Assembly: GCA_046565595.1 (NCBI GenBank)
Contig: JBKHYG010000121.1
Span: forward strand, 330 to 64,329
DNA from: Actinomycetota bacterium
GTDB lineage: Bacteria; Actinomycetota; AC-67
Direction: 5' to 3'
Length of the DNA stretch: 64,000 bases
The translations under genes were made by a program, and so were the position numbers. Below are positions 41,232 through 61,397 of this stretch, in pieces (position 1 is the stretch's first letter; each line of letters starts with the position of its first letter). A model generated the notes under the pieces. The model did not search any database, was not told the origin of the DNA, and saw only the letters and a program-made list of their open reading frames with translations.

Positions 41232-41530
41232 TCCAGCCCGCACAGTTCTTGGCATTGGCCGCCATGCTCTTCGCGGTCGGTTCGGCTGGCGTGATCCTGC
41301 GTCGGAACCCGCTGGTGATGTTCATGGGGATCGAGCTGATGCTGAACGCGGTCAACCTGACCCTGGTCACCTTCGCCAAGGTGCATGGGACGCTCGACGG
41401 TCAGGTGCTCGCCTTCTTCGTCATCGTCGTCGCTGCTGCCGAGGTGGTTGTCGGACTCGCGATCATCGTGCAGATGTTCCGACGGGTCCGAGGCGCCGAT
41501 GTGGATGATCGGAGTTCGCTCAGATGGTGA
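41228..41530 (+). CDS. nuoK: NADH-quinone oxidoreductase subunit K
   Basis: 100 aa, three transmembrane helices, ND4L-like. Confidence 0.85.
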
Positions 41531-44931: not shown

Positions 44932-46385
44932 TGCCGGTAGAGCAGGCTCCCGAGATCATCTGGCACGCGCTCTCGCCGATGCTGATCCTGCTGGCTGGCG
45001 GCATGCTGCTGCTCCTCGTTGGAGTGTTCGCTCCCGCCCTTCCCCGTCGCTTCCTGGCGATCGGATCGTTCCTGACCGTCGTGCTGTCGGGCATCTTCCT
45101 CGCCGCTCAGCTCCCTTCCCAACCTCGCATCACCATGAACGACATGGTCATCATCGATGGTGTGGGCCTCTTCGCTTCGATGGTGATCCTCGCAGCTGCG
45201 GCGTTCGTGATCCCGGTGACCCATTCGTATCTCCGCGAACATGGATGGAACCGGGTCGAGTATCAGCCGCTGCTGTTGTTCGCGACCCTCGGGATGGTCA
45301 TGCTCGCCACGGCGAACGATCTCATCATGGTCTTCATCGCCATCGAGGTCTTGTCGCTCGCGCTGTACACGATGGTGGGCATCGCCAAGAGAGAACGCAC
45401 GGCTCAGGAAGCGAGCCTGAAGTACTTCCTCCTCGGTGCCTTCTCCAGCGCGATCCTGCTCTACGGAGTGGCCTTGTTGTTCGGCGGTACCGGATCCACT
45501 CGGATCCCCGCCATCGCCGACACGATCGCTGCGGGCGGAGCTGACGGCAGACTGGTCTTCGCCGGGCTCGCCTTGCTCATCACCGGTTTCGCCTTCAAGA
45601 TCGGCGCGGTGCCGTTCCACGCTTGGACACCAGATGTGTATCAGGGCGCTCCCACCGCTGTGACGGCATTCATGGCTGCGGGGACCAAGGCCGCCGCCTT
45701 CGCAGCGTTGCTCCGCACGCTGCTGGTGTCCTTCGGAGCGATCGCGTGGGATTGGCGTCCGGTGCTCTGGGCCATCGCCATCGCAAGCATGGTCCTCGGA
45801 TCCGTGGTCGCGATCGTCCAGACCGACATCAAACGGATGCTCGGATATTCGAGCGTCGCACATGCGGGTTTCATCCTCATCGGCGTGGTCGCGGCCGATC
45901 GTGACGGGCTCGCCTCCTCTCTGTTCTATCTGGCCGTCTACGCCCTGATGACCATCGGAGCGTTCGTGTCGGTGATGGCCAGTGGTAGGGGAGACGATGA
46001 GCGAAGCGACCTGGCATCCTGGGCTGGGCTCGGGCACGCCGAGCCGCTGTTCGCGGGCGTCATGACCTTCTTCCTGTTGTCGCTCGCAGGGATCCCGCCT
46101 ACGGGAGGTTTCGCCGCCAAGTTCCTGGTGTTCGCCGCCGCCGAAGGCCAGGGTGAAACAGGACTGGTGATCGTGGGTGTCTTGAGCAGCGTCGTAGCGG
46201 CGTTCTTCTATCTCCGCGTGATAGTCCTCATGTGGCTGCAGGACCCGCTGGACATGCAGCGATCCGCGCTCGATCGGGTCAGTGCCTGGACGCTCGGCGC
46301 AGCAGCAGGTCTCGTCGCGATCATCGGCATCTACCCACAGGCGTTGATCGACCTCGCCCGCAACGCCGCGACGCTGGCAGGCTGA
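44931..46385 (+). CDS. nuoN: NADH-quinone oxidoreductase subunit N
   Basis: 484 aa, ND2 family. Confidence 0.9.
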   Translation: MPVEQAPEIIWHALSPMLILLAGGMLLLLVGVFAPALPRRFLAIGSFLTVVLSGIFLAAQLPSQPRITMNDMVIIDGVGLFASMVILAAAAFVIPVTHSYLREHGWNRVEYQPLLLFATLGMVMLATANDLIMVFIAIEVLSLALYTMVGIAKRERTAQEASLKYFLLGAFSSAILLYGVALLFGGTGSTRIPAIADTIAAGGADGRLVFAGLALLITGFAFKIGAVPFHAWTPDVYQGAPTAVTAFMAAGTKAAAFAALLRTLLVSFGAIAWDWRPVLWAIAIASMVLGSVVAIVQTDIKRMLGYSSVAHAGFILIGVVAADRDGLASSLFYLAVYALMTIGAFVSVMASGRGDDERSDLASWAGLGHAEPLFAGVMTFFLLSLAGIPPTGGFAAKFLVFAAAEGQGETGLVIVGVLSSVVAAFFYLRVIVLMWLQDPLDMQRSALDRVSAWTLGAAAGLVAIIGIYPQALIDLARNAATLAG

Positions 46386-47365
46386 TGGGCCTGAAACTGC
46401 CCGCGCTCCCTCGGCTAGAGGCTGAGCTGCGAGAAGATCTTGAGGCGGTCGAGTCGCTCCTCAGGTCCTCCGTCGCCTCGGATCTGCCACTGCTGGACGA
46501 AGCTTCGCGCTTCTTGATCGAGGCCGGAGGGAAGCGCTTCCGCCCTCTCCTGGTGCTCCTGTCGGGACGCTTCGGGAAACAGGACGCGCCCGAGAGCCTG
46601 CGTGCGTGCGCGGCGGCGATCGAACTGACGCATCTCGCGACGCTGTATCACGACGATGTGATGGATGAGACCATGACCCGTCGCGGGGTCGACACGGCCC
46701 ATCGCAGGTACGGCAACGCGACCGCGATCTTGGTCGGCGACTTCCTGTTCGCGCGAGCCTCGAAACTGTCCGCACCGCTCGGGGTATATGTATCAGAGAG
46801 ATTGGCTTCGACGATCGGGGACCTGGTAACCGGTCAGGTCATGGAGACCGAACTCTCCTCCGGTGGAGACCAGCGTGTGCCTACCGTAGAGGAACACCTC
46901 GAGGTGCTGCGGTTGAAGACTGCCGTGCTGATCGAAACCTCATGCCACCTCGGGGCCTATCTAAGTGGAGCAGACCACGGGACAGTCCAGGCGCTGACGA
47001 GGTTCGGCGCACAGATCGGCCTTGCCTTCCAGTTATCCGACGATCTGCTCGACCTCGTTGGGGACGAGAGCGAGACAGGCAAGCGGCCGGGAACGGACCT
47101 GCGTGAAGGGGTCCTGACCCTGGCGCCGCTGCTGACCTTGTCCAGCGACTCCGAGTCAGCGAAGCGTCTGCGGTCGGCCCTTCAGGAGGCGGATCTGGAT
47201 ACGGCGATCGAACTGTTGCGGCAGGACGGCAGCATCGATCTTGCGCGGGAAAAGGTACGCGCCCATCGAGACATGGCGCTTCAGGCCTTGGAGCAACTTC
47301 CTAGGTCCGACGCGGCTGACGCGCTCAGATGGATGGCCGAGACACTCGACGATCGGACGCTGTGA
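46385..47365 (+). CDS. polyprenyl diphosphate synthase (trans-isoprenyl diphosphate synthase family)
   Basis: DDxxD motifs (LYHDDVMDE, FQLSDDLLD). Start overlaps the nuoN stop as TGATG. Confidence 0.8.
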   Translation: MGLKLPALPRLEAELREDLEAVESLLRSSVASDLPLLDEASRFLIEAGGKRFRPLLVLLSGRFGKQDAPESLRACAAAIELTHLATLYHDDVMDETMTRRGVDTAHRRYGNATAILVGDFLFARASKLSAPLGVYVSERLASTIGDLVTGQVMETELSSGGDQRVPTVEEHLEVLRLKTAVLIETSCHLGAYLSGADHGTVQALTRFGAQIGLAFQLSDDLLDLVGDESETGKRPGTDLREGVLTLAPLLTLSSDSESAKRLRSALQEADLDTAIELLRQDGSIDLAREKVRAHRDMALQALEQLPRSDAADALRWMAETLDDRTL

Positions 47366-48513
47366 TGCGGGTCGCGATCATCGTTCACTCCTACTACCTG
47401 CGAGACACCCGTCCTCGCCGTCACGCCGCCATCCTCTCTCGCGCCGGACACCAGGTCGAGGTCATCTGCGCGCGCGATGTCGACGAATCTGCCTCCGAGG
47501 AGATCGGGGGAGTGAAGATCCGCCGGCTACCTGCTAGACGCAAGCGCGGATCCAAGCTCCGATACATCTTCGAGTATCTCTCCTTCACGCTCATGGCTTC
47601 GCTGGCGCTGCTACGGAGAAGAGGCCGCTACGACGCGATCATCGTGCTCGGCATCCCGAACTTCCTGGTGGCTTCCACGCTCGTCCTGCGACCCCGCAAG
47701 CAGCAGCGTCCGAGGATCCTGCTCGACATGCGTGATCCATTGCCCGAGTTCTTCCAGGCCAAGTATCAGATGCCGGCTGGGTCCCTGGCGCATCGGCTCT
47801 TGCTCGCCGAGGAGCGTTTCTCTTGTCGCCTTGCCGACCAGATCCTGACGGTGGTCGGTTCGATGGCTCGGCTGTATGCGCGCAGTGTCGATCCATCCAA
47901 GATCAAGGTCGCGATGAACGCGCCCGACACGAGGCTCTTCAAGGTGACCGATGTCAGACGGGACCCCTCTGATCGGACCATGCTCTACACCGGCACGGTG
48001 GCAGAACGCTATGGCGTGGATCTGGCGGTTCATGCGGTCGCGCTCCTCAAGGCAGAGATCCCTGGTCTGCGCCTGCGGATCGTCGGGGATGGCGATCTCA
48101 TCGAGGACTGTCGCGCGAAGGCAACATCCCTGGGGGTATCCGACAGGGTCGAGTTCCTCGCCCCGGTGCCGCTGGATCAGGTGCCTGGGCTCATCGCGTC
48201 GGCTTGGATCGGGGTGCAGCCCAACCGTAGCGATGCGCTGATGGATCACAGCCTGTCGACCAAGATCCTCGAGTGGGCGAGCCTCAGGCTGCCCGTCGTG
48301 GCTGGTCGAACCGATGCACTCGAGGCGGTGTTCGGATCGGACTCGATCTGGCTGCACGAACCCGGCGATCTAGAGGACCTGTGCCGCTGTATCCGCGAGG
48401 TCCAGGCCGGCCAAGACACCGCTCGTCGCCTAGAGCTGGCGCAGCAGCGGGCCGAGGCGGTCGACTTCGAGTCACAGGCCAAGGTCCTCCTGGCGGCGGT
48501 CGAGGGGGCGTGA
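47365..48513 (+). CDS. glycosyltransferase family 4 (GT-B fold)
   Basis: GT4-like C-terminal domain. TGATG coupled to the polyprenyl synthase. Confidence 0.7.
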   Translation: MRVAIIVHSYYLRDTRPRRHAAILSRAGHQVEVICARDVDESASEEIGGVKIRRLPARRKRGSKLRYIFEYLSFTLMASLALLRRRGRYDAIIVLGIPNFLVASTLVLRPRKQQRPRILLDMRDPLPEFFQAKYQMPAGSLAHRLLLAEERFSCRLADQILTVVGSMARLYARSVDPSKIKVAMNAPDTRLFKVTDVRRDPSDRTMLYTGTVAERYGVDLAVHAVALLKAEIPGLRLRIVGDGDLIEDCRAKATSLGVSDRVEFLAPVPLDQVPGLIASAWIGVQPNRSDALMDHSLSTKILEWASLRLPVVAGRTDALEAVFGSDSIWLHEPGDLEDLCRCIREVQAGQDTARRLELAQQRAEAVDFESQAKVLLAAVEGA

Positions 48514-48580
48514 TGCTGCAGAAGAGCGTCATCGTCGTTGCTATCCTCGCCGCGGAGGCCGCCCAACGCAGGCGGGACCG

Positions 48581-49408
48581 ATGAGCACCAAGACCGACAG
48601 CGTCGTCATAGAGAACGACTCGAGACTCGCGTCCTATGGGGCCTACATCAACGAGATGTGGGAGCGCAAGGGGCTCGTCCGGGTGCTCGCCAGTCGCGAG
48701 TTGAAGTCGTCCTACGACATGAATGTCGTCGGCTTCATGTGGTGGCTGCTCGAGCCCCTCACCCTGACCGGGGTCTACTTCATCCTCTTCAGTGTGATCT
48801 TCAACAACCGCCGTGAGAACTATCTACTCGTTCTGCTCACGGCTCTGCTGCCCTTCAAGTGGTTCAACCAGACGATCGTCCAGTCCATGGGTACGGTCCG
48901 GTCGCACGCGAGCCTGATAACCGATGTGTACTTCCCGCGGGCTCTACTACCGATGACCGAGACCGTCATCGGGCTCGCGCATTTCTCGGTGGGTCTGTTG
49001 GTCGTTCCGGTGCTCATGATCATCATGGGTGTCCCGGCGACCTGGAACCTGCTCGCGCTGCCCGGGATCATGTTGGTTCAGTTGATCTTCGGCCTCGGCC
49101 TCGCCTATCCGATGTCGGTCCTCGGCTTGAACTACCGCAACCTGCCGAACCTCATGGGCAACATCCTGAGGCTGTGGTTCTATCTCTCTCCAGCGATCTG
49201 GAGCATCGAGAGGGTGCCCGAGAGGTACCACTGGCTGGTCAGTCTCAATCCCTTGAGCGGGCTCTTCCAGGGATATCACTCGGCGATCCTGGGTGATCCA
49301 TGGCGGGTCTGGGATCTGATGTGGACCCTCACGCTGGGCACCGTGCTGCTGATCGGCGGCACCTATTACTTCACGCGCCGAGAAGCGCAGTTCGGGAAGA
49401 TGTTGTGA
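48581..49408 (+). CDS. ABC-2 type polysaccharide/teichoic acid export permease (Wzm/TagG-like)
   Basis: 275 aa with six transmembrane helices in an ABC-2 exporter layout. Confidence 0.8.
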   Translation: MSTKTDSVVIENDSRLASYGAYINEMWERKGLVRVLASRELKSSYDMNVVGFMWWLLEPLTLTGVYFILFSVIFNNRRENYLLVLLTALLPFKWFNQTIVQSMGTVRSHASLITDVYFPRALLPMTETVIGLAHFSVGLLVVPVLMIIMGVPATWNLLALPGIMLVQLIFGLGLAYPMSVLGLNYRNLPNLMGNILRLWFYLSPAIWSIERVPERYHWLVSLNPLSGLFQGYHSAILGDPWRVWDLMWTLTLGTVLLIGGTYYFTRREAQFGKML

Positions 49409-50298
49409 GCAACGAGTTTGCGATCCAAGCGCGCGATGTCGGCGTCCGGTTCTTCATCCGCCATCACACCCCGACGGTCCACTCGGGCCTGGTGCGGTTC
49501 ATGAAGGGGAAGGTCAAGCCTGACGAGTTCTGGGCGTTGCGACACATCGACTTCGACATCCCGAGGGGGAGCGTCTTCGGATTCATCGGGGCGAACGGAT
49601 CTGGCAAGTCGACCATGCTGCGTACCATCGCGCGCATCTACCATCCCGACGAAGGATCCCTGAAGGTCCGTGGCAAGATCTCGAACCTGATCTCGCTGGG
49701 GGCAGGTTTCCAGAAGACGCTGTCTGGCATGGAGAACATCACCTTCAACGGCATGTTGCTCGGACTGTCGCGCCAAGAGATCGAGCGCAAGAAGGAAGCG
49801 ATCATAGAGTTCGCGGACATCGGGAAGTTCATCCACGCCCCCGTCCGAACCTATTCGAGCGGTATGCGAGCACGGCTGGGTTTCGCTATCGCGGTCCATG
49901 TCGATCCCGAGATCCTGGTCGTGGACGAGGTGTTGGTCGTCGGCGACGCGCAGTTCCGTCAGAAGTGTTCGGACAAGATCCGCGAGTTGTTCACCAACGG
50001 TGCGACGGTCGTCATGGTCCAGCACAACATGGATGTCATCGTCGACATGTGCCAGCAGGTCATGTGGCTGGACAAGGGCAAGGCCCGGATGCTCGGAGAC
50101 CCGGAGACCGTCGCCAACGAGTACCTCGCAAGCAAGGGCCTACCACCTCTCGAGCCAAAGGCCGCTGACGCCGCTGATCCAAAGGCCGCCGGCGGCGCTG
50201 GCCCTAGGGACGCGGGTGGCGCGGGCCCTAAGGACGCGGGTGGCGACGGTAACGCAACCGAGGGCGACGGCCCCAGGGTTCAGGCCAAGCGTTCGTAG
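49405..50298 (+). CDS. ABC transporter ATP-binding protein (Wzt/TagH-like) with a low-complexity C-terminal tail
   Basis: Walker A GANGSGKST, signature SSGMRARL, Walker B ILVVDE. GTG start overlaps the permease stop as GTGA. Confidence 0.8.
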   Translation: MSNEFAIQARDVGVRFFIRHHTPTVHSGLVRFMKGKVKPDEFWALRHIDFDIPRGSVFGFIGANGSGKSTMLRTIARIYHPDEGSLKVRGKISNLISLGAGFQKTLSGMENITFNGMLLGLSRQEIERKKEAIIEFADIGKFIHAPVRTYSSGMRARLGFAIAVHVDPEILVVDEVLVVGDAQFRQKCSDKIRELFTNGATVVMVQHNMDVIVDMCQQVMWLDKGKARMLGDPETVANEYLASKGLPPLEPKAADAADPKAAGGAGPRDAGGAGPKDAGGDGNATEGDGPRVQAKRS

Positions 50299-51494
50299 AC
50301 ACCCAGGAGTTCCTTCGCCTGGCCGTCCCAGGTGAAGTTGCCAGCCAGCTTCGAACTTCGCTCTTTCAGTGGCCCCAGGTCGGCACCGATCAATCGCGCC
50401 AGAGCCTGCTTCATGTCGCTCGCGTCGCCAGGCCTGAACACCTCACCCAGCTTCTCTCCGCGGACGATCCTCGCGATATCAGGCAGGTCCGATGCGCAGA
50501 TCGCGAGGCCGGCATGCATGTACTCGAAGAGCTTGTTCGGTGCGGCGAGCTCGTTGTTCAAACCCACCGGTTCGTAGCTGACGATCCCGATGTCCGCAGC
50601 CGCCGCGGCGTTCACTACCCCGTCGGGTTCCACCGAGCCTGCGAAGACCACACGGTCGCCGGCAGGTTGAGCGAGTTGACGGAGCTGGTCCTCGATCGGG
50701 CCCCAACCCAGCATCACCAGCCTGGCTCCGGTCAGATCAGCCATCGCCGATACGAGGGCCTCGAGTCCACGGTTCGGAGTGAAGCCTCCCGCATAGATGA
50801 GCAGCCGTTCGTCGCCTCGGCGAAGCTCGACGATCCGGGGATCGGGCTGGATCTGCGCGGGCGGATCGGGACAGTTCATGACCACCGTCGGCTCTGGGAT
50901 ACCGTAACGCTCGACGAGTATCTGTCCCCTGGCGGCTGTTGGCACGATCGTCGCCTGGGCGTGCGAGATGTACCTGGCTTCCACCGCTCGCCAAGCGCGC
51001 CGTTCGAGTTTCGTCAGGCCGGTGAGATCGGGATACAACTCATGAGCGTCGTACACCAGGTGCGCTCGCGAATGATTCGCGACGGCAGCGCCAGCGGCCA
51101 GGGTGTTCAGGTCGTGGGCATGCACCAGTTCCGGCATCGGCAATCGGCTGGCCGCGCGGACGAACGCCCTATCCAGCCAGAGATCCCTCGCCAGGATGCC
51201 GGTAGCGATCAGTCCGCGAGGCGGTCTGATCCCTATCCGGCTGTGGCCATCGGCTTCGCCCGCGCTCGAGGCAGATGCCCTTCCAGCCGTGCCCGTGATG
51301 GTGGGTCCCGCCCAACGACCCGTCCGGACTCCTCTCACCACTCGGATCCGATCTACCAGATCGTCCTTCGGAAGGTCTCCCGCTTGCAGGCAGAGGATCG
51401 TCACTTCATGGCCGGCTTGTATAGCGCTCCTTGCCTCCCGCAAGACGCGAGCGTCCCGGGTGAAGGGGTTGCGAAGCAGCATCAGGACGCGCAC
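50280..51494 (-). CDS. glycosyltransferase family 4
   Basis: 404 aa. GT-B fold with an EX7E-like C-terminal region. Confidence 0.7.
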   Translation of the reverse strand: MRVLMLLRNPFTRDARVLREARSAIQAGHEVTILCLQAGDLPKDDLVDRIRVVRGVRTGRWAGPTITGTAGRASASSAGEADGHSRIGIRPPRGLIATGILARDLWLDRAFVRAASRLPMPELVHAHDLNTLAAGAAVANHSRAHLVYDAHELYPDLTGLTKLERRAWRAVEARYISHAQATIVPTAARGQILVERYGIPEPTVVMNCPDPPAQIQPDPRIVELRRGDERLLIYAGGFTPNRGLEALVSAMADLTGARLVMLGWGPIEDQLRQLAQPAGDRVVFAGSVEPDGVVNAAAAADIGIVSYEPVGLNNELAAPNKLFEYMHAGLAICASDLPDIARIVRGEKLGEVFRPGDASDMKQALARLIGADLGPLKERSSKLAGNFTWDGQAKELLGVYERLA

Positions 51495-51532
51495 TCCTTC
51501 AGCCTACGCAGACCGGAGGCCCGCGAAGCCCG

Positions 51533-54500
51533 GTGATAGCCTCGCTGCATCTCATGACGGACGCCAACCCCGCCGACCTTGACGCCATCGGCGTCCTACG
51601 ACGCACCCGCGACACGCTAACTCTTCGAGCCGAGATCGAAGAGGCCCGTGCGCGCGCCGCCAACGAGCGGCTCCAGATGTTCGGCAAGAGCATCTGGGGA
51701 TTGCTGGGGATCATCTTGTCGGCTGGATGGAAGCGTCCCTGGAAGCTGCCGAAACTCTTCTATCTGCTAGCCCGTACGCGCTTCGCTGGCCCGAAGCGCC
51801 GCCGCGCCTTCTCCGAGGCACGGCGTTGCTTCGAGGATCGACGATACGAGGATGCGCTCGCGAGGTGTGACGAGATCCTTCGAGACAACCCCGCGGACCT
51901 TCCGGTGTTGCGCTTCAAGCGAGAGATCCTCGGCAAGATGGGTGACCTCTCAGGCATGCTCGCCACCGTTCGGCAGGCGCGCGCACTGGGCGAACTCGAG
52001 AGCCTGCGTCGGTCAGAACGCGTGCTCGAGAGCCGCCTGAAGGAACTCGATCCCACCTGGCTGCCGCCGATCCCGGGTCGTCCCGAGCGGTACGAGGCCG
52101 TTCCCGGCCGGGTCTTGCATCTGCTGAAGAACTCGATGCCCCAACACACCTCGGGGTACACCGCTCGTAGCCGTTACACGATGCTCGCCCAACGCGGCGC
52201 TGGGCTCGATCCGGTCGTGGTCACATCCTTGGGCCAGCCGAGGCTCGACGGGCTGACCGACTTCCCGCTCGTCGAGGCGGTCGATGGGATCGAACACCAC
52301 CGACTCGACCTCGGGGACCTGCCCTACCTGGGTCTGCCCCCTCACGAATATCTCGAGCTGTTCGCTTGGACCGCGGCCGAGAAGGTCCGGGCGTTGAAGC
52401 CGGCCGTCATCCACGCCCGCTCTGGCTTCCGCGGCTACGAGATACCGCTGGTCGGCTTGGCACTGTCGAGGCACTTCGGGATCCCTCTGGTCTACGAGGC
52501 TTCGATGTTCCTCGAGGGAACCTGGACCGACGATGTCGAGTGGATGGAGCGGGGCGAGCTCTATCGCTTACGCACCGAACAAGAGAACCGGTGCATGCGT
52601 GAGGCCGACCATGTCGTGACGATCGCCGAAAGCATGAAGCAAGAGATCGTGGGTCGCGGGATCCCCAGTGACCATGTCACGGTCATCCCGAACGGTGTCG
52701 ATCCAGAGAGGTTCCAACCCCGTCCCAAGGACCCTGAACTCCTGCGATCACTCGGCCTAGAGGATCGAGTGGTGCTCGGCTACATCTCTAACATCGGTTA
52801 CCGGGAAGGCCTCGACATCATGGTGCGAGGCCTGGCTGAACTGATCTCTCGCGGAGAGGATGTCGGCGGCCTGATCGTCGGAGACGGTCCGCAGTTACCC
52901 GCCCTGCGTGAACTCGCCGAGGAGTTAGGTATCACCGATCGTGTGGCGATCACGGGACCGGTCTCGCATGAGGTTGTCGCGGACTACTACGCGGCGATCG
53001 ACCTGTTCGTGATCCCTCGCCGCGATGAGCGCGCCGCGAGGCTCGTGACGCCGTTGAAGCCGTACGAGGCGATGGCTCTCGGCAAGCCGCTACTGGTTGC
53101 AGGTTTGCCGGCGCTCCTGGAGGTTGCGGAGCCGCCCCTCCGCGGAGCCGCGTTCACTCCGGAAGATCCGATCTCGATGGCGGACGCCGCCACGCCACTG
53201 ATCCGCGATCATGCCGAACGCGAACGCCTGGGGGAAGAGGCTAGACGCTGGGTCCTGTCCGAGAGGACCTGGGACAGGGTCGGTCCGATGTATAGGGATG
53301 TCTATGCGCGAGCATCCGAGGTGGCCGCTAGCCGGAGTACGCCGGTTGGCGATCCGGCGCCGGCGGCACTAGGAGAGGCGGAAGCCTTACGCGTCGAGAT
53401 CGAGCAACTCGGGACCCGGATCGCCAAGGCCCGTTCCAGGGCTGCGGCCACAGAAGAGAAGTATTGGAACGATCCGATGCGCAAGGTTCGAAAGGGGGTC
53501 CGCGAGGTCTTGAAGGCGTCCGGTCCGATCGGAAAACTGAAGCAGTTGGTGCGCGTGGCGAGACGGTGGAGAGCAGCCCGGCTGGAAACGCCTGACCGTT
53601 TCCCGCCGCAGAGGATCGTCGCGCGCAAGACGCAAGCCCTGCCGAGCCTCGCCTCGGAGGGAAGCGAAGGGTCTCTGCTCGAACTCGCCAGGACCGCTCT
53701 TGCCACGCTACCCAAGGGAGGCGACCGGCCTCCGGGCATCCTCTTGTACGCGCCACTGGTCCGCAACAACCCGTTCCAGGCTCTGCTGTACAGCGCATGT
53801 TGGGAGTCCGGGATCGCGCCGCTGCCGCTGACCGATCTGGATGTCGCTGACGAGGCCAAGGCGCTGCCTGGTCTCGGCGTCGAGACCTGGTTCCACATCC
53901 ACTGGACCGGTCAGGTGCTGCAAGGTGCGACATCCAAGTCGGACGCGGCCGAGAGACTGAAGGCCTTCACCGAACGGCTGGAGGGGCTCGTGCACGCGGG
54001 TGTGCGGATCGCTTACACGGTCCACAATGCCTTGCCTCACGAACACGAGTTCCCAGCTCTGGAAGCAGGCGTGGTCAAGGCGATCTTGGATCGCGCCAGC
54101 CTCGTTCACTGCCTGACCGAGGATGCCCCCGATCTGGTGAAGCCGACCATCGATCTGCCCTCAGACAAGATCGAGGTCATCCCTCATCCCTCGTACATCG
54201 GCGTCTACCCCGAGCATCTCTCCAAACTGCAGGCTCGTTTCGAACTCGGGCTCACAGACGATGATCTGGTCGTAGCCACGCTCGGAGGCATCCGGGCCTA
54301 TAAGGGCATCGGCCCGCTCCTGGAAGCCTTCGAACAAGCTGCCGAGCAAGAGCCACGCCTCCGTCTGATCGTCGCAGGCAAACCGATCGCTTTCCCAGAG
54401 GCCAAGGCGCTGCGCGGACGCTGCGAAGGCGATGATCGGATCATCTCCTTCTTCGGACGGGTCCCCGAGGATCAACTGCAGCGCTACGCGAAGGCCGCAG

Positions 54501-54793
54501 ACGCCATCGTGCTAGCCCACGATGCCGTGTTGAACTCTGGCGTACTGCCGCTGTCGCTGACCTTCGGCCGCCCTGTGATCGCTGCCAAGCGCGGGGCGCT
54601 TGAGCGGCTGGTGACCTCTGACATCGGGATCACCTACGACCCCGACGAGCCGGGTGGCCTGAAGCGCGCCCTCTTACAGGTTAAGGATCTGCGAGATCCG
54701 AACTACGAGGCGGCAGCTAGGAAGCGGGCGGAAGAGATCGCGCCCGACCGGATCGCTGCCTCGTTCGCGGAAGCCTTGCGCCGCCGCTACTGA
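51533..54793 (+). CDS. large multidomain glycosyltransferase: N-terminal amphipathic/TPR-like region, GT4 domain, coiled-coil spacer, second GT-B domain
   Basis: 1086 aa. First GT4 domain at ~aa 190-600. Predicted coiled coil at ~aa 600-680. Second GT-B domain at ~aa 700-1086. The true start may lie downstream of 51533, because only 38 bp separate it from the divergent gene. Confidence 0.6.
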   Translation: MIASLHLMTDANPADLDAIGVLRRTRDTLTLRAEIEEARARAANERLQMFGKSIWGLLGIILSAGWKRPWKLPKLFYLLARTRFAGPKRRRAFSEARRCFEDRRYEDALARCDEILRDNPADLPVLRFKREILGKMGDLSGMLATVRQARALGELESLRRSERVLESRLKELDPTWLPPIPGRPERYEAVPGRVLHLLKNSMPQHTSGYTARSRYTMLAQRGAGLDPVVVTSLGQPRLDGLTDFPLVEAVDGIEHHRLDLGDLPYLGLPPHEYLELFAWTAAEKVRALKPAVIHARSGFRGYEIPLVGLALSRHFGIPLVYEASMFLEGTWTDDVEWMERGELYRLRTEQENRCMREADHVVTIAESMKQEIVGRGIPSDHVTVIPNGVDPERFQPRPKDPELLRSLGLEDRVVLGYISNIGYREGLDIMVRGLAELISRGEDVGGLIVGDGPQLPALRELAEELGITDRVAITGPVSHEVVADYYAAIDLFVIPRRDERAARLVTPLKPYEAMALGKPLLVAGLPALLEVAEPPLRGAAFTPEDPISMADAATPLIRDHAERERLGEEARRWVLSERTWDRVGPMYRDVYARASEVAASRSTPVGDPAPAALGEAEALRVEIEQLGTRIAKARSRAAATEEKYWNDPMRKVRKGVREVLKASGPIGKLKQLVRVARRWRAARLETPDRFPPQRIVARKTQALPSLASEGSEGSLLELARTALATLPKGGDRPPGILLYAPLVRNNPFQALLYSACWESGIAPLPLTDLDVADEAKALPGLGVETWFHIHWTGQVLQGATSKSDAAERLKAFTERLEGLVHAGVRIAYTVHNALPHEHEFPALEAGVVKAILDRASLVHCLTEDAPDLVKPTIDLPSDKIEVIPHPSYIGVYPEHLSKLQARFELGLTDDDLVVATLGGIRAYKGIGPLLEAFEQAAEQEPRLRLIVAGKPIAFPEAKALRGRCEGDDRIISFFGRVPEDQLQRYAKAADAIVLAHDAVLNSGVLPLSLTFGRPVIAAKRGALERLVTSDIGITYDPDEPGGLKRALLQVKDLRDPNYEAAARKRAEEIAPDRIAASFAEALRRRY

Positions 54794-55905
54794 GCGGCAA
54801 GCGTCGTTGAGACGACCTCGGCGATCCGCTCACCGGCCCGGCCATCCCACAGCGGAGGCCGCTTGGGATCAGGTGATCGACCCGCGCGGATCGCATCTGC
54901 GCCTTCCTTGCGGATCGTCTCTGGGTCGGGGCCGATCAGACGGTTGGTCCCCATGGAGCAGGTGATCGGCCTCTCGGTGTTCCAACGCAGCGTCAGACAA
55001 GGCACGCCCAGGACCGTGGTCTCCTCTTGTATGCCTCCCGAGTCGGTGAGTACCACCCTCGCATCGGCCATCAACTTGAGGAAATCCAGATAGCCGACGG
55101 GTTCTATGACGCTGACCCGTCCGCTGACCACATGACCAGAGCGCAGATCGACCAGATGGTCCAAACCGAAGGACGCCATCATCTTCACCGTGCGCGGATG
55201 AGCCGGGAACAGGATGGGCACTTCGCGAGCAAGATCAGCAAGGGCTTCGAGGATGCCCTTCAGCGTCTCTGGATCATCGACATTGGACGGGCGATGCAGG
55301 GTCACGAGCCCGTAGGCGTGGGGATCAGCCCCCAGGTTGCTGACGATGTTCGAGGAGTTGGCACGATCCAGATGCCTGAGCAGCGAATCGATCATCGGGT
55401 TGCCTACGAAGTGCACCCGCTCCTTTGCGACACCCTCGGCGACGAGGTTGTCCAAGGCTTCCGGGGAGGTCGTGAACAGCAGATCCGAGATCTGGTCGGT
55501 GAGTACCCGGTTGATCTCTTCTGGCATCTCTCGGTCGAAGGAGCGTAAGCCTGCCTCGACATGTGCGATCGGCAGCCGCTCCTTGGCGCACACCAACGCG
55601 GCTGCGATCGTCGAGTTCACATCACCTACGACGATGGTCAGGTCGGGGCGATGCTCGAGTAGCACCGGCTCTATGGTCTCCATGATCCGGGCGGTCTGAT
55701 ACGCATGGCTCCCGCTGCCGACCTCTAGATGGTGATCTGGCTCGGGCAGATCCAGATCGTCGAAGAAGGCTTGAGACATCTTGTGGTCGTAATGCTGGCC
55801 CGTGTGAACCAGGATGTTGGAGGCGCCACGCTCCTTCAGGGCTCGAAGGACCGGAGCGACCTTCATGAAGTTCGGGCGTGCTCCGGCGACATGTAGAACC
55901 TTCAC
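54787..55905 (-). CDS. wecB: UDP-N-acetylglucosamine 2-epimerase (non-hydrolysing)
   Basis: N-terminus MKVLHVAGARPNFMK..HTGQHYD and overall WecB/MnaA architecture. Confidence 0.85.
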   Translation of the reverse strand: MKVLHVAGARPNFMKVAPVLRALKERGASNILVHTGQHYDHKMSQAFFDDLDLPEPDHHLEVGSGSHAYQTARIMETIEPVLLEHRPDLTIVVGDVNSTIAAALVCAKERLPIAHVEAGLRSFDREMPEEINRVLTDQISDLLFTTSPEALDNLVAEGVAKERVHFVGNPMIDSLLRHLDRANSSNIVSNLGADPHAYGLVTLHRPSNVDDPETLKGILEALADLAREVPILFPAHPRTVKMMASFGLDHLVDLRSGHVVSGRVSVIEPVGYLDFLKLMADARVVLTDSGGIQEETTVLGVPCLTLRWNTERPITCSMGTNRLIGPDPETIRKEGADAIRAGRSPDPKRPPLWDGRAGERIAEVVSTTLAAQ

Positions 55906-56001
55906 GATGCTTCGAGTACCTCCGATGGGCCTGCCTCGCCCTGCGCTAGTGTTCGAGCGAGTCTACGAGCCGCACGGTGCGGCCCGTCCCGGAGGCTGTA
56001 G

Positions 56002-57306
56002 GTGACCGTCGAAGCGCTCCTTTCCCGTCTAGAGAACTCCCAGAGCAAGGCTGCGGTGCTGGGCCTGGGCTATGTCGGCTTGCCTCTGGTGATCAGCCTC
56101 GCCCGCACCGGCGTGCCGGTGATCGGTTTCGATGTGAAGCCCGATGTCGCGAGCCGCCTGGGCAGAGGTGTCAGTCACATCGACGATGTCTCCGATGCCG
56201 ACCTCGCCGAGGTCTCCGCGCTGACCCGGTTCACCGCCGACATCCAAGACATCGAGGTTGCCGATGTCATCTTCATCTGCGTTCCGACCCCGCTCGCCGT
56301 CGGGAAGCAGCCGGATGTGTCCTACATAGAGCGCGCCGCCCACCTGATCGCGACGGTCATGAGGCCAGGCCAACTCGTGATCCTCGAGTCGACGACATAT
56401 CCCGGCACGACCGACGACGCCGTGCTACCGATCCTCGAAGGATCGGGCCTGAAACTCGATAAGGATTTCCTGCTCGCCTATTCGCCCGAGCGCGTGGATC
56501 CAGGCAACAGCTCGTTCCACACGATGAACATCCCGCGCGTCGTCGGTGGCGTGACACCCCTATCGACCCGGGCTGCAGAGCTCATCTACTCGAGGATCGT
56601 GCCGAAGATCTTCACCGTCAGCAGCGCGCGCACCGCCGAGATGGCCAAACTGCTCGAGAACACCTTCCGGTGGGTCAACATAGCTCTCGTCAACGAGTTG
56701 ACCTTCGTCGCGCGAGCGATCGGCGTCGACATCTACGAGGTCATCGACGCGGCGGCGACCAAGCCGTTCGGCTTCATGCCCTTCTATCCCGGCCCCGGTG
56801 TGGGCGGACACTGCATCCCACTCGACCCGTTCTACCTGCAGTGGGTGGCCAAGGTCACCGGCGAGGGGACGCGCTTCGTCGAACTTGCCGAGTCGGTCAA
56901 CTCCTCGATGCCGCGCGTGGTGGTCGACCGTGTGACGGAAGCTCTGAACGACAGGAGCAGATCGGTACGCGGCTCGAACATCCTGGTTCTGGGGGTCGCC
57001 TACAAGCCGGATGTGAGCGATCAGCGCGAGTCGCCTGCGGCCGCCTGCATCTTGAGGCTCCAGAAGCTCGGCGCGCGCGTCACATACTCAGATCCGCACG
57101 CACCCACCTACCGAGAGCACGGTGTCGATCTGGCCTCCGTCGAACTGAGCGAAGAGGCCATCCGGGGGGCGGACTGCGTCCTGGTGCTCACCGATCACTC
57201 GGCTTTCGACTACGACATGGTCCTGGCGACTGCAGACCTGATCGTCGATACCCGGAACGCCTTCGGTCGTCGTGGTCTACGCGACGACAAGATATCCACC
57301 CTGTAA
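56002..57306 (+). CDS. wecC: UDP-N-acetyl-D-mannosamine dehydrogenase / nucleotide-sugar dehydrogenase
   Basis: GTG start after a GGAGG Shine-Dalgarno. NAD-binding GLGYVGLPL and catalytic-Cys region GGHCIPLDP. Confidence 0.8.
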   Translation: MTVEALLSRLENSQSKAAVLGLGYVGLPLVISLARTGVPVIGFDVKPDVASRLGRGVSHIDDVSDADLAEVSALTRFTADIQDIEVADVIFICVPTPLAVGKQPDVSYIERAAHLIATVMRPGQLVILESTTYPGTTDDAVLPILEGSGLKLDKDFLLAYSPERVDPGNSSFHTMNIPRVVGGVTPLSTRAAELIYSRIVPKIFTVSSARTAEMAKLLENTFRWVNIALVNELTFVARAIGVDIYEVIDAAATKPFGFMPFYPGPGVGGHCIPLDPFYLQWVAKVTGEGTRFVELAESVNSSMPRVVVDRVTEALNDRSRSVRGSNILVLGVAYKPDVSDQRESPAAACILRLQKLGARVTYSDPHAPTYREHGVDLASVELSEEAIRGADCVLVLTDHSAFDYDMVLATADLIVDTRNAFGRRGLRDDKISTL

Positions 57307-57430
57307 CCGCACTATTTCGCCCCGCTTTGGGCTGATTCGTAGTGGTTGCGTATCCGGTGTGGTCCCTGTGAACTACCGGAGGTCCTTGACCTGCTTCCGC
57401 ATGTCCTTAAGCATCAGTCTCCCTCCCCGT

Positions 57431-60325
57431 ATGCGACGCGCCGCTGCATGTGTCGTGGCGGCGGCGTTAACGCTCACGCTGCCGGCCGTGGCTGCGCGCG
57501 CACAGACCCCGCTCCCGCCTGACGCCGTCCTCACGATCCCCGGTCATGGTTGGGGCCACGGCCGGGGGATGGGCCAGTGGGGAGCCAAGGGCATGGCCGA
57601 CCAGGGTAAGAACTACCGAGAGATCCTGTCCTACTACTACTCCTCGGTCGAGTTCGGAGACAGAGGCGATGAGTGGTTGCGGGTGCTGGTGGAAGCGTCT
57701 CCCGATGTCGTCATCACGAGCGAGTCGAGCTTCAAGATCAGTTACTCAGACGGCGAGGTCTTAGCGACATCTGGCGATGCGAAGCCCTTCTGGCGTGTCA
57801 TCTACACCGGGGGCGCGCATCGCGCTCAGCGATCCGAAGCCTGGAACGGCCCCTGGGAGACCGTCGCCACCGATACCCGGTACATGATCTTCGCGCCGCA
57901 GGGCTCATTGCTCGAGGTCGTCTTCGGCAACGGAACCGTGCGGCGCTATCGGGGGAACATCATCGCCCGCTACGCGAGTGTCGATGGTATGCGCACGATA
58001 AACAGCCTCCGGATGGAGGACTATCTGCGCGGCGTCGTGCCTCGCGAATCTCCCTCGGGTTGGCCGGCAGAACAGTTGAAGTCTCAAGCGGTCGCTGCAC
58101 GCACCTATGCGTACCGCAAGCGCGACGACTCGAGATCGCGCGGCAACACCTTCGACATCTGTGCGACTACCGCGTGTCAGGTCTACGGAGGCGCAGGCCA
58201 ACGCTCCCGCCCCGGCGGGGCCATCAGCAGCCTCGAGGCATCCTCAACCGACGGGGCGCTCTCGGCGACGAAGGGGACCGTCCTGAACTACGCCGGAAAG
58301 GCCATCCTGGCGGAGTATTCGAGCAGCACGGGTGGCTACACAGCCCCTGGCTCGGTCCCATATCAGAAGGCGGTCCCTGACCCGACCGATGCCGTGAGCC
58401 CACACCATGAGTGGACCGCGAAGGTATCGGTCCGCGAGATCGAGTCCACCTGGCCCGCCATCGGTCGCCTGGTCCGCATCGAGGTGACCGAACGCAACGG
58501 CTTCGGCGAGTGGGGTGGCCGCGTGAAGCGTCTGAGGATCGTCGGGTCGTCGAAGACGATCGAGATCTCTGGGGACGCCTTCCGAGGAGCCTTCGCCTGG
58601 CCTTCCAAGTCCGACGGCCTCCGTTCGAGTTGGTTCACGATCGGCTACTGGGCTTCCGAACGGGTCCTCACCCCCGGCTCGACGACCATCCCGAGAGGCC
58701 AATCGAAACAACTGACCTACCGGTTCCGCAACCTCGGCACCGAGCCGTGGCCGGTCGGCGGGACGGTCGGCTTCTCCACCGATGCCGGAAGCAGCCTGCA
58801 AGCCGCCTCCTGGCCGTCACCGACCCGCCCCGCCTGGATCTCTCGCAATGTGACCCGCCCCGCCGCATCGAGCATCGCCGAGGGGGAGGTAGCCGAACTG
58901 ATCGTCGCGCTCGACACATCGTCTGCCCCGGTGGGCAGCGTGACCCTGCCCCTACGGCTAGAGGTCGAGGGCGGCACGCGGCTGGATGCGATCAACCTGA
59001 AGGTAGATGTCGTGCCGTCCTGGTTCGAGTTGGCTCCCAACATCCTGTCGAACGGTTCCTTCGAGAAGGGACTCTGGGCTTGGAGCGCTGACCGTGCTTC
59101 GCTCGTCGATGGCCGTGACCTGACCCGAGGCGTGTCAATGCAGCCCGGAGGCTCGATCACCCAGACCGTGAACCTGGCTGGCGGTTCCGGGCGTCGTTTC
59201 ATGTGGGGAGCCTGGACGAGCGCGGACCAGGGCGCAGACCTCGAGGTCAAGGTGCTTGTGACCTTCGCGGACGGACGCAGCTACATCAAGCGTCTCGCCG
59301 TACCGGGTGGTCCTCACGACTGGACATACACCGAGCAGGGGTTCCGGACCGCTGCGGACCGGCAGGTATCGAACATCCGTTTCGAGGCCAGGTCCGTCGG
59401 GGGATCTGCCCGCCTGGACGCTGTCAGACTGATCGAGGATCCGGTCGCCAACTCGAGCTTCGAGCAGGACGAGCTGACCGCCTGGTCGATCCCTTTGGCT
59501 CCTGCGGACGCGCCGTTCGCGCGCACCGCGACTTGGACCGCCTCCGACGGAGATCAGGCCCTGATCATCCCCGGTCGGGTCGAACCGATCCTCGTCGAAC
59601 AGCGGTTCGCTCTGGACGCTCCGGCATGGGAACGCTACTCGTGGCGCTTCAGCCATCGGTCCTACCAGTCCACGGCGGGCCAGGGATCGTGGCTGGCTTC
59701 GCTGACACTCGTGCATCCCGACGGCACCGAGACCGTCTCGGAGATCCCGATAGACACAGCGCAACATCCTTGGGAGAGCGCGCGGGCCGAGCTGGTGGCT
59801 CGAAAACCGGTCACCGAAGGGATCCTCCGATTCCGGGCCGAGGGCCAGACGGGCTCTCTCTATATGGATCAGATCCGAGTCTTCCGCTCGAGGGTCAGCG
59901 ACGCCAGTTTCGAGGCAGGTGACCTGTCGGCGTGGAACACCGGCGGTCTCCAACCAGACGACCAGGTCGCCACTTGGGCCGCTCGGGACGGCGACCTGGG
60001 CCTGCGCCTGACCGGGCCGGCCAGATCCTTCGTCACCCAGAACCTCGTCCTGCGGGGCACCCCCAGCCGGACCTTCCGTCTGGCAGCCTGGAACAATTCC
60101 AGCAGGGCCAGATCGGGCCGCGTGGATGTGGCGGTGACCTTCTTCCACACCGACGGCACCCGTTCAGCGCAGGTGTTGGACTTCACAGGGCCAGATCACG
60201 CCTGGACCTACCGCGAGATCCGCATCAGCTCGGCCAAGCGCTTCGACGGCGTCCGGGTGGCTGTGATGCTGGACGGCCCATCTGGCTGGACGAGTTTCGA
60301 CTCGATACGGCTGATCGACGCCTAG
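57431..60325 (+). CDS. secreted SpoIID/LytB-domain protein with three tandem CBM4_9-like modules
   Basis: Signal peptide MRRAAACVVAAALTLTLPAVAARA. SpoIID hallmark GHGWGHGRGMGQWGA. Three ~140-aa repeats begin NGSFEKGLWAW, NSSFEQDELTAW and DASFEAGDLSAW. Start chosen at ATG 57431; an in-frame ATG at 57401 is an alternative. Confidence 0.7.
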   Translation: MRRAAACVVAAALTLTLPAVAARAQTPLPPDAVLTIPGHGWGHGRGMGQWGAKGMADQGKNYREILSYYYSSVEFGDRGDEWLRVLVEASPDVVITSESSFKISYSDGEVLATSGDAKPFWRVIYTGGAHRAQRSEAWNGPWETVATDTRYMIFAPQGSLLEVVFGNGTVRRYRGNIIARYASVDGMRTINSLRMEDYLRGVVPRESPSGWPAEQLKSQAVAARTYAYRKRDDSRSRGNTFDICATTACQVYGGAGQRSRPGGAISSLEASSTDGALSATKGTVLNYAGKAILAEYSSSTGGYTAPGSVPYQKAVPDPTDAVSPHHEWTAKVSVREIESTWPAIGRLVRIEVTERNGFGEWGGRVKRLRIVGSSKTIEISGDAFRGAFAWPSKSDGLRSSWFTIGYWASERVLTPGSTTIPRGQSKQLTYRFRNLGTEPWPVGGTVGFSTDAGSSLQAASWPSPTRPAWISRNVTRPAASSIAEGEVAELIVALDTSSAPVGSVTLPLRLEVEGGTRLDAINLKVDVVPSWFELAPNILSNGSFEKGLWAWSADRASLVDGRDLTRGVSMQPGGSITQTVNLAGGSGRRFMWGAWTSADQGADLEVKVLVTFADGRSYIKRLAVPGGPHDWTYTEQGFRTAADRQVSNIRFEARSVGGSARLDAVRLIEDPVANSSFEQDELTAWSIPLAPADAPFARTATWTASDGDQALIIPGRVEPILVEQRFALDAPAWERYSWRFSHRSYQSTAGQGSWLASLTLVHPDGTETVSEIPIDTAQHPWESARAELVARKPVTEGILRFRAEGQTGSLYMDQIRVFRSRVSDASFEAGDLSAWNTGGLQPDDQVATWAARDGDLGLRLTGPARSFVTQNLVLRGTPSRTFRLAAWNNSSRARSGRVDVAVTFFHTDGTRSAQVLDFTGPDHAWTYREIRISSAKRFDGVRVAVMLDGPSGWTSFDSIRLIDA

Positions 60326-60353: not shown

Positions 60354-60478
60354 ATGCCTGATGCGCCGCTTTGAAGAGCGCCCGGAATGCTGGGTTATGA
60401 TGCCGCGCGCCGTGGGGAGATCCGCGGTCCGCGCCGGTGCGCGCGGCGACGCAAGGCGACCGGGGGGCGCCAACGGCA

Positions 60479-60850
60479 GTGACCGACTACTTCTGGCAGT
60501 ACGGAACCCTTGGGGCTCTCGCGGTCCTCGCGGTCGGGTTCGTCGCGGTCGGATTCACGGTCAACCGCATCATGAGGCCCAAGAAGCCTCGCCCCGAGAA
60601 GCTCACGACCTACGAGTGTGGCGTGGATCCCGTCGGTGACGGTTGGTCTCAGACGCAGATCCGTTACTACGTCTTCGCCTTCCTGTTCGTGATCTTCGAT
60701 GTTGAAAGCGTCTTCCTGTTCCCGTTCGCGACCATCTTCGAGACCTTCCCGAACCCCGGTCTCGTGTTGGTCGAGATGATCATCTTCATCCTCATCCTGG
60801 CGGTCGGCCTGCTGTATGCATGGCGCCGCCGCGTCCTCGAGTGGCTCTGA
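60479..60850 (+). CDS. nuoA: NADH-quinone oxidoreductase subunit A, second paralog
   Basis: Start uncertain. GTG 60479 aligns with the N-terminus of the first NuoA (VTDYFWQYG against TLVDYLPIL); GTG 60437 is an alternative. ECG motif and three transmembrane helices present. Confidence 0.7.
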
Positions 60851-60851
60851 C

Positions 60852-61397
60852 ATGGGTCTGATCGACAAGGTCGATTTCCCGCAACCGGCGAAGTTCATCT
60901 TCAACTGGGGCCGGCGGTATTCCCTTTGGGTCATGAACTTCGGCCTGGCTTGCTGTGCGATCGAACTGATCGCGGCTTCCACCAGTCGTCATGACTTCAT
61001 CCGCCTGGGCGTCATCCCCGTGGCGCATGGTCCCCGCCAGGCGGACCTGCTGGTCGTGGCTGGCACGCTGACCGACAAGATGGCTCCTGCCCTGAAGCGC
61101 GTCTATGAGCAGATCCCCGAGCCCAAGTATGTGATCAGTTTCGGCTCCTGCTCCAACTGCGGGGGTCCCTTCTGGGACTCGTATTCGGTCACCAAGGGGG
61201 TCGACCAGATCGTTCCCGTGGATGTCTATGTACCGGGTTGCCCTCCGCGTCCCGAGGCCCTGCTCGAAGGCATCCTGCTGCTGCAAGACCGCATCAAGGA
61301 CGAGTCCTTGAAGGAACGCTTCGAGCGGCGCGCCGCGACCGAACCGATCGTGGTCGGTGGCGGCTCCATCAACGACACGAGCATCGACGACGGATGA
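60852..61397 (+). CDS. nuoB: NADH-quinone oxidoreductase subunit B, second paralog
   Basis: N2 ligand motifs [20 protein letters not shown]. Confidence 0.85.

Follow-up and report, generated by a model that had tools for sequence, protein, structure and literature searches.

A gene cluster for the probable synthesis and export of a cell envelope polysaccharide was analyzed in a 64,000-nucleotide stretch of DNA from an Actinomycetota bacterium (contig JBKHYG010000121.1), referred to as the window. The cluster lies at positions 47365-60325 and probably directs the cytoplasmic assembly and ABC export of an anionic heteropolysaccharide that contains N-acetylmannosaminuronic acid (ManNAcA), a teichuronic-acid-like envelope polymer built on a polyprenyl carrier. 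Profile searches against Pfam and NCBIfam confirmed, each at its position, the eight genes that a first-pass annotation of this DNA had listed between two complex I operons. They encode a glycosyltransferase (GT) termed GT4a, the exporter proteins Wzm and Wzt, a second glycosyltransferase termed GT4b, a large two-module GT, the epimerase WecB, a WecC-like dehydrogenase and a secreted SpoIID/LytB protein with carbohydrate-binding modules (CBMs).

The export class of the cluster was assigned from Wzm and Wzt. Wzm (48581-49408, forward strand) is an ABC-2 permease (PF01061, 28.4 bits, cutoff 26.9), and its best NCBIfam match, below the cutoff, was the galactan-export permease Wzm/RfbD. By hydropathy, it is the only protein of the cluster with multiple hydrophobic segments. 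Orthologues of Wzm in related loci (numbered here with the prefix L) are 50-76% identical. Wzt (49405-50298, forward strand; PF00005) is an ABC ATPase of 297 residues, with a GTG start that overlaps the stop codon of Wzm and a nucleotide-binding domain at residues 38-241. The best matches for Wzt in the PDB were Wzt of A. aeolicus (6amx, 205 bits), TagH (7dd0), TarH (6jbh) and RfbE of M. tuberculosis (9qfx). The locus thus has an ABC-2 permease and, next to it, an ATPase, both of the Wzm/Wzt-TagG/TagH type, and no Wzx- or Wzy-like membrane protein was found among all open reading frames (ORFs) of 47365-60325. Gene content and profile matches therefore support the first-pass assignment of the locus to the ABC-transporter-dependent glycan clusters. 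Profile and PDB searches found no CBM on Wzt, and its C-terminus is a low-complexity tail, some 55 residues long and enriched in A, G, P, D and K. This part of the earlier description was correct. The non-canonical chain termination that had been read into it did not hold, because the tail is missing in the orthologues of 257-283 residues (L001, L002, L003, L084 and L085) and exporters lacking a CBM are a known class. As the window also has neither a terminator nor a long coiled coil, the system was grouped with these CBM-less exporters, and without a CBM on Wzt export is expected to be free of terminal-cap gating.

The sugar composition was predicted from the two precursor enzymes. WecB/MnaA (54787-55905, reverse strand) matched PF02350 with E=5e-107 and passed the equivalog cutoff of the non-hydrolysing UDP-GlcNAc 2-epimerase (TIGR00236, 333 bits, cutoff 210). 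The WecC-like NDP-sugar 6-dehydrogenase (56002-57306, forward strand) passed the subfamily model of the nucleotide-sugar dehydrogenases only (TIGR03026, 412 bits, cutoff 190). Its best matches in the PDB were the UDP-ManNAcA dehydrogenase of P. horikoshii (4r16, 249 bits) and Cap5O of S. aureus (3ojl, 223 bits), with UDP-glucose dehydrogenases at 134 bits or less. Judged from these similarities, the product of the dehydrogenase is most likely UDP-ManNAcA. The pairing of WecB with a dehydrogenase of this kind makes ManNAcA the likeliest uronic sugar, in agreement with the first-pass annotation.

The two-module GT (51533-54793, forward strand; NCBI start at 51554) is a protein of 1079-1086 residues, for which an AlphaFold2 model was obtained with a mean predicted local distance difference test (pLDDT) score of 87. 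Its N-terminal helical region (residues 1-190, 51533-52102, forward strand) is composed of a long helix at residues 14-51, two basic/hydrophobic helices at 54-84 and five TPR-like helices at 86-171. A RLRELDPxWLP motif preceding the first GT module is conserved among homologues. No transmembrane segment was detected in the two-module GT by Kyte-Doolittle analysis, and it should therefore be a soluble or peripheral membrane protein. Module 1 (residues about 191-600, 52103-53332, forward strand) is a stp3-type GT4 resembling TIGR04063 (317.6 bits, cutoff 442). Its top Foldseek matches were the retaining GT4 enzymes MshA and GlgM, with a TM-score normalised to the target of about 0.8. Many homologues of module 1, with the TPR-like region and the stp3-like GT4, end not in a second GT but in sulfotransferase (PF13469, PF00685) or methyltransferase domains, which suggests that sulfated or methylated variants of the polymer may exist.

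Module 2 (residues about 736-1086, 53738-54793, forward strand) gave a pLDDT of 95.4 when modelled alone. The best matches in Foldseek and profile searches against the PDB were the retaining GT4 enzymes MshA, HepE, PimB' and BshA; the GT4 structural matches are generic fold matches at 17-22% identity. The segment ...LNSGVLPLSLTFGRPVIA... of module 2 aligns with NESFGLVAMEAQA of MshA, and both glutamates of the EX7E motif are missing. Of the features that define GT4 in CAZy, module 2 thus possesses the GT-B fold and lacks the EX7E motif. It has a motif set of its own, HxHW, TVHN, PHxxY, YKG and NSG, and invariant residues H56, W59, T97, H99, N100, H153, K192, D258 and S270 (S270 and G271 being invariant or nearly so). 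On the basis of the model, module 2 is classified as a GT4-like GT-B enzyme. The family of module 2 is large and often forms the C-terminal module of proteins of 600-1150 residues; no curated NCBIfam model was found to cover it.

The two modules are connected by a linker (residues about 601-735, 53333-53737, forward strand), which in the AlphaFold model consists of one 33-residue helix (613-645), two shorter helices (648-661 and 665-684) and about 30 disordered residues (685-714). The protein had earlier been described as a dual glycosyltransferase with a coiled-coil spacer. Two GT modules are indeed present, whereas the spacer is, as modelled, a helical linker and not an extended coiled coil. 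A role of the linker as a coiled-coil ruler of the WbdD/WbbB type was ruled out, as it is too short and neither a terminator nor a CBM accompanies it. An internal duplication relating the N-terminal helical segment (residues 14-90) to the linker (605-690) was also considered and rejected; BLASTP produced no alignment, and only the architecture is alike.

GT4a (47365-48513, forward strand) is a GT-B/GT4 glycosyltransferase of about 382 residues, matched by Glyco_trans_1_4, Glycos_transf_1 and Glyco_trans_4_4. Its orthologues, 52-75% identical, adjoin Wzm in L001-L003, L084 and L085, including the loci that have a different polymerase, and such retention in all variants of the locus is as expected of an enzyme working on a common primer. 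GT4b (50280-51494, reverse strand) is a divergently transcribed GT4 of 404 residues (Glyco_trans_1_4, Glyco_transf_4) that travels with the two-module GT. It is 48-61% identical in L001-L004 and missing in L084 and L085, where the two-module GT is also missing.

The last gene of the cluster (57431-60325, forward strand) encodes a secreted SpoIID/LytB protein of 964 residues with three CBM repeats (TIGR02669, 181 bits, cutoff 83; PF08486 and PF02018). Its ORF opens at 57272, and the methionine at 57431 is a plausible start, beginning the signal peptide MRRAAACVVAAALTLTLPAVAARA followed by Q. The SpoIID domain matched the structures 4rwr and 5i1t, with the glutamate of VVPRE aligned on the glutamate of VVASEM/LAGEM in both SpoIID chains, which we take to be the catalytic residue of SpoIID. 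Both the domain and the aligned glutamate place the protein in the SpoIID/LytB family of lytic transglycosylases. The three C-terminal repeats, starting at about nucleotides 59051, 59450 and 59900, are divergent and CBM_4_9/CBM16-like, and each opens with N/D-x-SFE. Residues 821-941 matched the CBM of an S-layer endoglucanase (2zex). The order of segments in the SpoIID domain (57533-57673 and 57989-58420) is swapped compared with 4rwr and 5i1t. The motif GHGxGMxQWGAxGMA...YY is N-terminal here (residues 35-81) and C-terminal in SpoIID; it is separated from the catalytic part (residues 187-330) by an insert of about 100 residues. This order may represent a circular permutation. About 60 full-length homologues of 34-71% identity were found in uncultured Actinomycetota, and the orthologues in L002, L083, L084 and L085 are 40-55% identical. 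The gene marks the conserved 3' edge of the locus, beside nuoA2, and is a partner specific to the window's own lineage.

Conservation of the genes together in relatives, on which the earlier reading depended, was observed. Full-length homologues of the two-module GT with 48-65% identity occur in the same gene order and at the same site on independent metagenomic contigs (L001, L002 and L004; L003 in part). Since the same genes recur in order on independent contigs, the cluster is more than a chance assembly. L002 contains nuoMN, the polyprenyl synthase, GT4a, Wzm, Wzt, GT4b, the two-module GT, WecB, WecC, SpoIID and nuoA2-D2. In this closest syntenic relative, a gene for a UPF0182 membrane protein of 898 residues (6028-8724), absent from the window, is located between Wzt and GT4b. 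L001 has the same set together with PMT_2, a methyltransferase, a Pel9A-like protein and DUF6311, and its SpoIID gene lies inside the cluster, in reversed orientation and upstream of WecB/WecC. GT4b, the two-module GT, WecB, WecC and the second nuo operon are found in L004. L003 is kept up to the two-module GT and continues (12090-20369) with a GT2-containing multidomain GT (1073 residues, GT2/GT4), dTDP-sugar/rml-type isomerases and methyltransferases. Three more loci were found through searches with the SpoIID-CBM protein. L083 contains WecB, WecC, SpoIID and the second nuo operon, and L084 and L085 carry GT4a, Wzm, Wzt and SpoIID-CBM between the polyprenyl synthase and nuoA2, without GT4b and the two-module GT. 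A PMT gene, several methyltransferases, an acyltransferase and other GTs including GT2 were present in L084 (3135-22241). In L085 (1758-9826), where GT4a is the sole GT, an epimerase, an acetyltransferase, an aminotransferase, a dehydrogenase and a GFO-type oxidoreductase make up the full five-gene set for UDP-ManNAc3NAcA. Judged by gene content, the region that separates nuoN/polyprenyl synthase from the second nuo operon is, in this lineage, a variable glycan island built on the fixed frame GT4a-Wzm-Wzt ... SpoIID-CBM, and the window would carry its variant with ManNAcA and a fused co-polymerase. Such an island has its analogues in the variable loci for O-antigen or capsule in other bacteria.

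The wider distribution of the GT pair was determined in GTDB. A scan with the single 1086-residue GT as query gave no matches; an alignment of seven full-length homologues as query resulted in 79 loci. These loci were searched with the window proteins by tblastn, and association counts were taken from the 42 loci flanked on each side by 8 kb or more, considering features within 10 kb. Module 1, a stp3/TIGR04063-like GT4 preceded by TPR-like helices, was found in Chloroflexota (Limnocylindria, Anaerolineae), Acidimicrobiia and Micrococcales (Arthrobacter, Citricoccus, Kocuria, Micrococcus, Janibacter, Ornithinimicrobium and Serinicoccus). Directly behind it, 45 of the 79 loci have a homologue of module 2, mostly in another frame and thus as a separate gene; fusion in the same frame, with a linker gap of about 410-450 bp, was seen only in L001-L004. 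A WecB-like gene is located near module 1 in 32 of the 42 loci, a WecC-like gene in 33, one or the other in 37 and Wzt in 27, with WecB, WecC and Wzt together in 23. The association with WecB/WecC holds also in loci without module 2, and module 1 is therefore the better candidate for the ManNAcA transferase. A Micrococcus locus (L068) contains a sugar dehydrogenase, two pairs of stp3-GT4 and module-2 GT, WecB, Wzm and Wzt.

From these data the following pathway is proposed. UDP-GlcNAc would be converted to UDP-ManNAc by WecB and further to UDP-ManNAcA by the WecC-like dehydrogenase. A lipid-linked primer, provided by an initiating phosphoglycosyltransferase encoded elsewhere, would be lengthened by GT4a and GT4b acting as adaptor GTs. 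The fused GT would serve as a peripheral-membrane co-polymerase, its GT-B modules corresponding to the adjacent separate genes of most other lineages. Addition of ManNAcA by module 1 and of a second sugar by module 2 would give an alternating disaccharide repeat. The finished chain would be exported by Wzm/Wzt, its length presumably set by the balance between polymerase and exporter and not by a terminator or a ruler. Outside the membrane, an LCP enzyme encoded elsewhere probably ligates the polymer to peptidoglycan. The secreted SpoIID protein would cleave the glycan strands of peptidoglycan, and its three CBMs may dock on the polymer, as conserved synteny in one lineage suggests.

A number of observations weigh against this pathway. 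Neither an initiating phosphoglycosyltransferase of the MraY/WecA or Bac_transf type, among the genes called, nor an LCP ligase was found in the 64-kb window, and the lipid-linked start and the wall attachment were therefore assumed. The islands of L001, L002, L003 and L083-L085 contained no initiating enzyme either. Its gene may lie in another part of the genome, which is a common arrangement, and the absence of the enzyme from the window would be no bar to the ABC-dependent class. The best specific models for the dehydrogenase were the UDP-ManNAc dehydrogenase equivalogs, both scoring below the cutoff (281 bits of 750 and 252 of 459). Both GT modules resemble retaining GT4 enzymes, yet the teichuronic acid of Micrococcus requires beta-ManNAcA transfer. 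For the Micrococcus gene products, masses of 44-46 kDa and at most 64 kDa were predicted, which is no clean fit to the 52.5 and 54 kDa reported for the subunits of the teichuronic acid synthase (TUAS) (PMC3005890). In several loci of Arthrobacter and Kocuria, the GT pair has no WecB/WecC in its vicinity, and no WecB/WecC was found in the visible 9 kb downstream of the fused GT in L003. SpoIID is missing from L004 and was found near module 1 in none of the 42 fully flanked loci, nor at any of the 79 GTDB loci. This last result would also fit a locus of mere neighbors, in which WecB/WecC feed a linkage unit or a polymer encoded elsewhere and the SpoIID-CBM protein is an unrelated wall enzyme. 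The constant position of the SpoIID-CBM gene at the nuoA2 edge in L002 and L083-L085 points the same way, as does the GT of L003 with no WecB/WecC nearby. However, WecB or WecC accompanies the stp3-like GT4 in 37 of the 42 loci, and the SpoIID gene of L001 lies within the cluster and not at its edge, so that unconnected genes are considered improbable.

The absence of an LCP ligase, from the window as well as from the annotated islands of relatives, favors a product made and exported in the same way and not linked to peptidoglycan, such as a capsule, a slime exopolysaccharide or a lipoglycan. The closest NCBIfam model of module 1 was derived from exopolysaccharide (PEP-CTERM/XrtA) loci, and the model of the full-length two-module GT also matched the capsule-polymerase multienzyme 8qoy. 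However, the genes for LCP enzymes commonly lie apart from polymer loci, the island consistently holds a secreted protein predicted to act on peptidoglycan, and the same toolkit is present in Micrococcus, whose ManNAcA polymer is wall-linked. A product outside the wall is regarded as possible, though rather unlikely. The exported lipid-linked glycan could also act as donor when proteins are glycosylated, or in an extracytoplasmic decoration carried out by GT-C enzymes, as in S-layer-like or other glycoproteins. PMT/PMT_2 GT-C genes are found beside Wzm/Wzt in L001 and L084, and DUF6311 in L001, but these PMT genes sit in the variable part of the island, outside the conserved frame, and the window has no GT-C, oligosaccharyltransferase-like or S-layer gene; a donor function thus seems a slim prospect. 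The best structural matches of the GT4 enzymes, MshA, GlgM, sucrose-phosphate synthase and BshA, might point to a cytoplasmic small-molecule or storage glycoside of the mycothiol, trehalose or glycogen type, and the first-pass annotation had named an assignment to trehalose or mycothiol pathways among the results that would tell against its reading. The scores were far below the cutoffs (MshA 108 bits against 462.5, BshA 78 against 273.7 and GlgA 32 against 328), and a dedicated Wzm/Wzt exporter stands alongside in most related loci. Such a function can hardly be credited, and an exported wall polymer with ManNAcA remains the preferred reading.

The cluster has a coding density of about 100%, and its intergenic gaps of only 38-124 bp exclude a further hidden gene in 47365-60325. 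Upstream it is flanked by nuoA-N (31993-46385), followed by a trans-type polyprenyl diphosphate synthase (46385-47365, forward strand) that is absent from the first-pass annotation, and downstream by a second set, nuoA2/B2/C2/D2, from 60437. The remaining content of the window is made up of respiratory, cytochrome-c-biogenesis and haem genes. The polyprenyl synthase matched PF00348 with E=4e-63; its best NCBIfam matches were nonaprenyl and heptaprenyl synthases, all below the cutoff. It follows nuoN in L001, L002, L003, L084 and L085 and is by default read as a context gene, probably serving the menaquinone tail. A gene for a FAD-dependent geranylgeranyl-reductase-like protein (30582-31898) is located just 5' of nuoA, so that together with the polyprenyl synthase 3' of nuoN, enzymes for isoprenoid-quinone side chains bracket the operon.

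TGATG stop/start overlaps join nuoN to the polyprenyl synthase (46383-46387) and the polyprenyl synthase to GT4a (47363-47367), and Wzm and Wzt share the four nucleotides GTGA (49405-49408). The tight junction of polyprenyl synthase and GT4a is kept in L002, L003 and L084. By these overlaps, the nuo transcription unit looks as if it were extended at its 3' end by GT4a-Wzm-Wzt, and the sequence suggests that these genes share a transcript with the 14-gene complex I operon; promoter and terminator scans of the locus were uninformative. The first-pass annotation had called the cluster inserted. This was not supported, as the G+C content is 63-66% all along the window and flat across the cluster, scans found no tRNA and no mobility gene at the cluster and base composition gave no hint of a recent insertion, the cluster keeps its position in relatives, and GT4a-Wzm-Wzt are translationally coupled to the nuo-polyprenyl synthase genes.

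Convergent gene ends overlap by 19 bp between Wzt and GT4b (50280-50298) and by 7 bp between the two-module GT and WecB (54787-54793). The divergent starts of GT4b and the two-module GT are 38-59 bp apart, leaving scant space for two promoters, and the two transcripts may be leaderless. In L083 (6750-16614) and L085 (13120-22949), the second nuo operon consists of nuoA, B, C, D, H, I, J, K, L, M and N, without nuoE, F and G, and would encode a complex-I-like enzyme of 11 subunits that has no NADH-oxidising module. Of this operon, the window contains only A2-D2 (60437-63057) before it ends. Farther away, two ORFs of 501 and 382 residues (6799-8304 and 8672-9820) had no Pfam match. The 382-residue ORF overlaps the 3' end of a gene on the same strand for an extracytoplasmic function sigma factor (9817-10410) and may encode an anti-sigma factor.

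Uronic-acid wall polymers of Actinomycetota have been described as poorly characterized (PMC13274773), and the cluster supplies concrete candidate genes. The fused GT pair, the WecB/WecC-like precursor pair and the Wzm/Wzt exporter are candidates for the Micrococcus teichuronic acid synthase system. Moreover, at one fixed position in the chromosome, uncultured Actinomycetota maintain a surface-glycan island of variable content, and surface-glycan islands are expected targets of phages, toxins and lectins. The cluster itself represents a known and fairly ordinary type of pathway, built from uncharacterized GT families and with lineage-specific peculiarities. Should the TUAS and island readings fail, it would be one more ABC-dependent polysaccharide locus.

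Compared with known systems, the cluster resembles tuaA-H of Bacillus subtilis in the proposed uronic-acid wall polymer and in the inclusion of a UDP-sugar dehydrogenase. Unlike in tuaA-H, the scores for TuaC and TuaH were at most 58.6 and 48.8 bits against 550, and for TuaD 142 against 700. The teichuronic acid of Bacillus is composed of glucuronic acid and N-acetylgalactosamine and is made by a Wzx/Wzy-type route and not by Wzm/Wzt. An ABC-2 permease with an ATPase consisting of the nucleotide-binding domain is shared with TagGH/TarGH, which export wall teichoic acid, and with the mycobacterial Wzm-Wzt/RfbE for galactan. In contrast to these systems, the window proteins score below every equivalog cutoff, the window Wzt has an extra, non-conserved low-complexity tail, and neither a TagF/TarL-type polyol-phosphate polymerase nor a GlfT-type galactan GT is present in the window. 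Wzm/Wzt of K. pneumoniae O2a is another exporter without a CBM.

The Streptomyces utr loci vary between species and specify teichuronic-acid-like polymers with ManNAc3NAcA, which TarS/TarM-like GTs attach to wall teichoic acid, and a five-enzyme set for UDP-ManNAc3NAcA has been described (PMC13274773). The likeness lies in an actinobacterial anionic polymer with a manno-configured 2-acetamido uronic acid, and L085 has the same five-gene precursor set. However, the enzymes of the window, the stp3-like GT4 pair, are unrelated, and the predicted sugar is ManNAcA and not its 3-acetamido derivative. In the polymerase-terminator class, an extended coiled-coil ruler and a terminating enzyme are combined with a CBM on Wzt, as in E. 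coli O9a and K. pneumoniae O3 (both with WbdA-WbdD) and in K. pneumoniae O4, O7 (ORF6) and O12 (WbbB) (PMC11231755). These systems are likewise ABC-dependent with a multi-module GT polymerase, and WbdA is also a dual GT4. The window differs from them in having no extended coiled coil, no CBM on Wzt and no kinase, methyltransferase or Kdo-transferase as terminator, and it is outside the polymerase-terminator subclass.

By analogy, the closest biological precedent is plausibly the wall teichuronic acid of M. luteus, [-4-beta-D-ManNAcA-(1->6)-alpha-D-Glc-1-]n, which is elongated by a membrane complex of 440 kDa that was purified and contains two different glycosyltransferases, whose genes were not named (PMC3005890). 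Since that study names no genes, homology to TUAS itself is only inferred. As in the TUAS pathway, UDP-ManNAcA and two distinct GT activities would be required, and the two GT-B modules are the candidates for the latter. A more far-reaching proposal is that the pair of stp3-like GT4 and EX7E-less GT-B, which accompanies WecB/WecC and Wzm/Wzt from Micrococcales to Chloroflexota, encodes the teichuronic acid synthase of the Micrococcus type and thus an alternating ManNAcA/hexose co-polymerase, occurring here as a natural single-chain fusion, with the exporter co-transcribed with complex I and the SpoIID protein docking on the polymer through its three CBMs to remodel peptidoglycan; taken as a whole, this is held to be doubtful. 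In the window, unlike in Micrococcus, the two GTs are fused in one polypeptide through a helical linker. The same toolkit is found in the Micrococcus locus L068, and the fused GT of the window therefore plausibly corresponds to a TUAS-type synthase.

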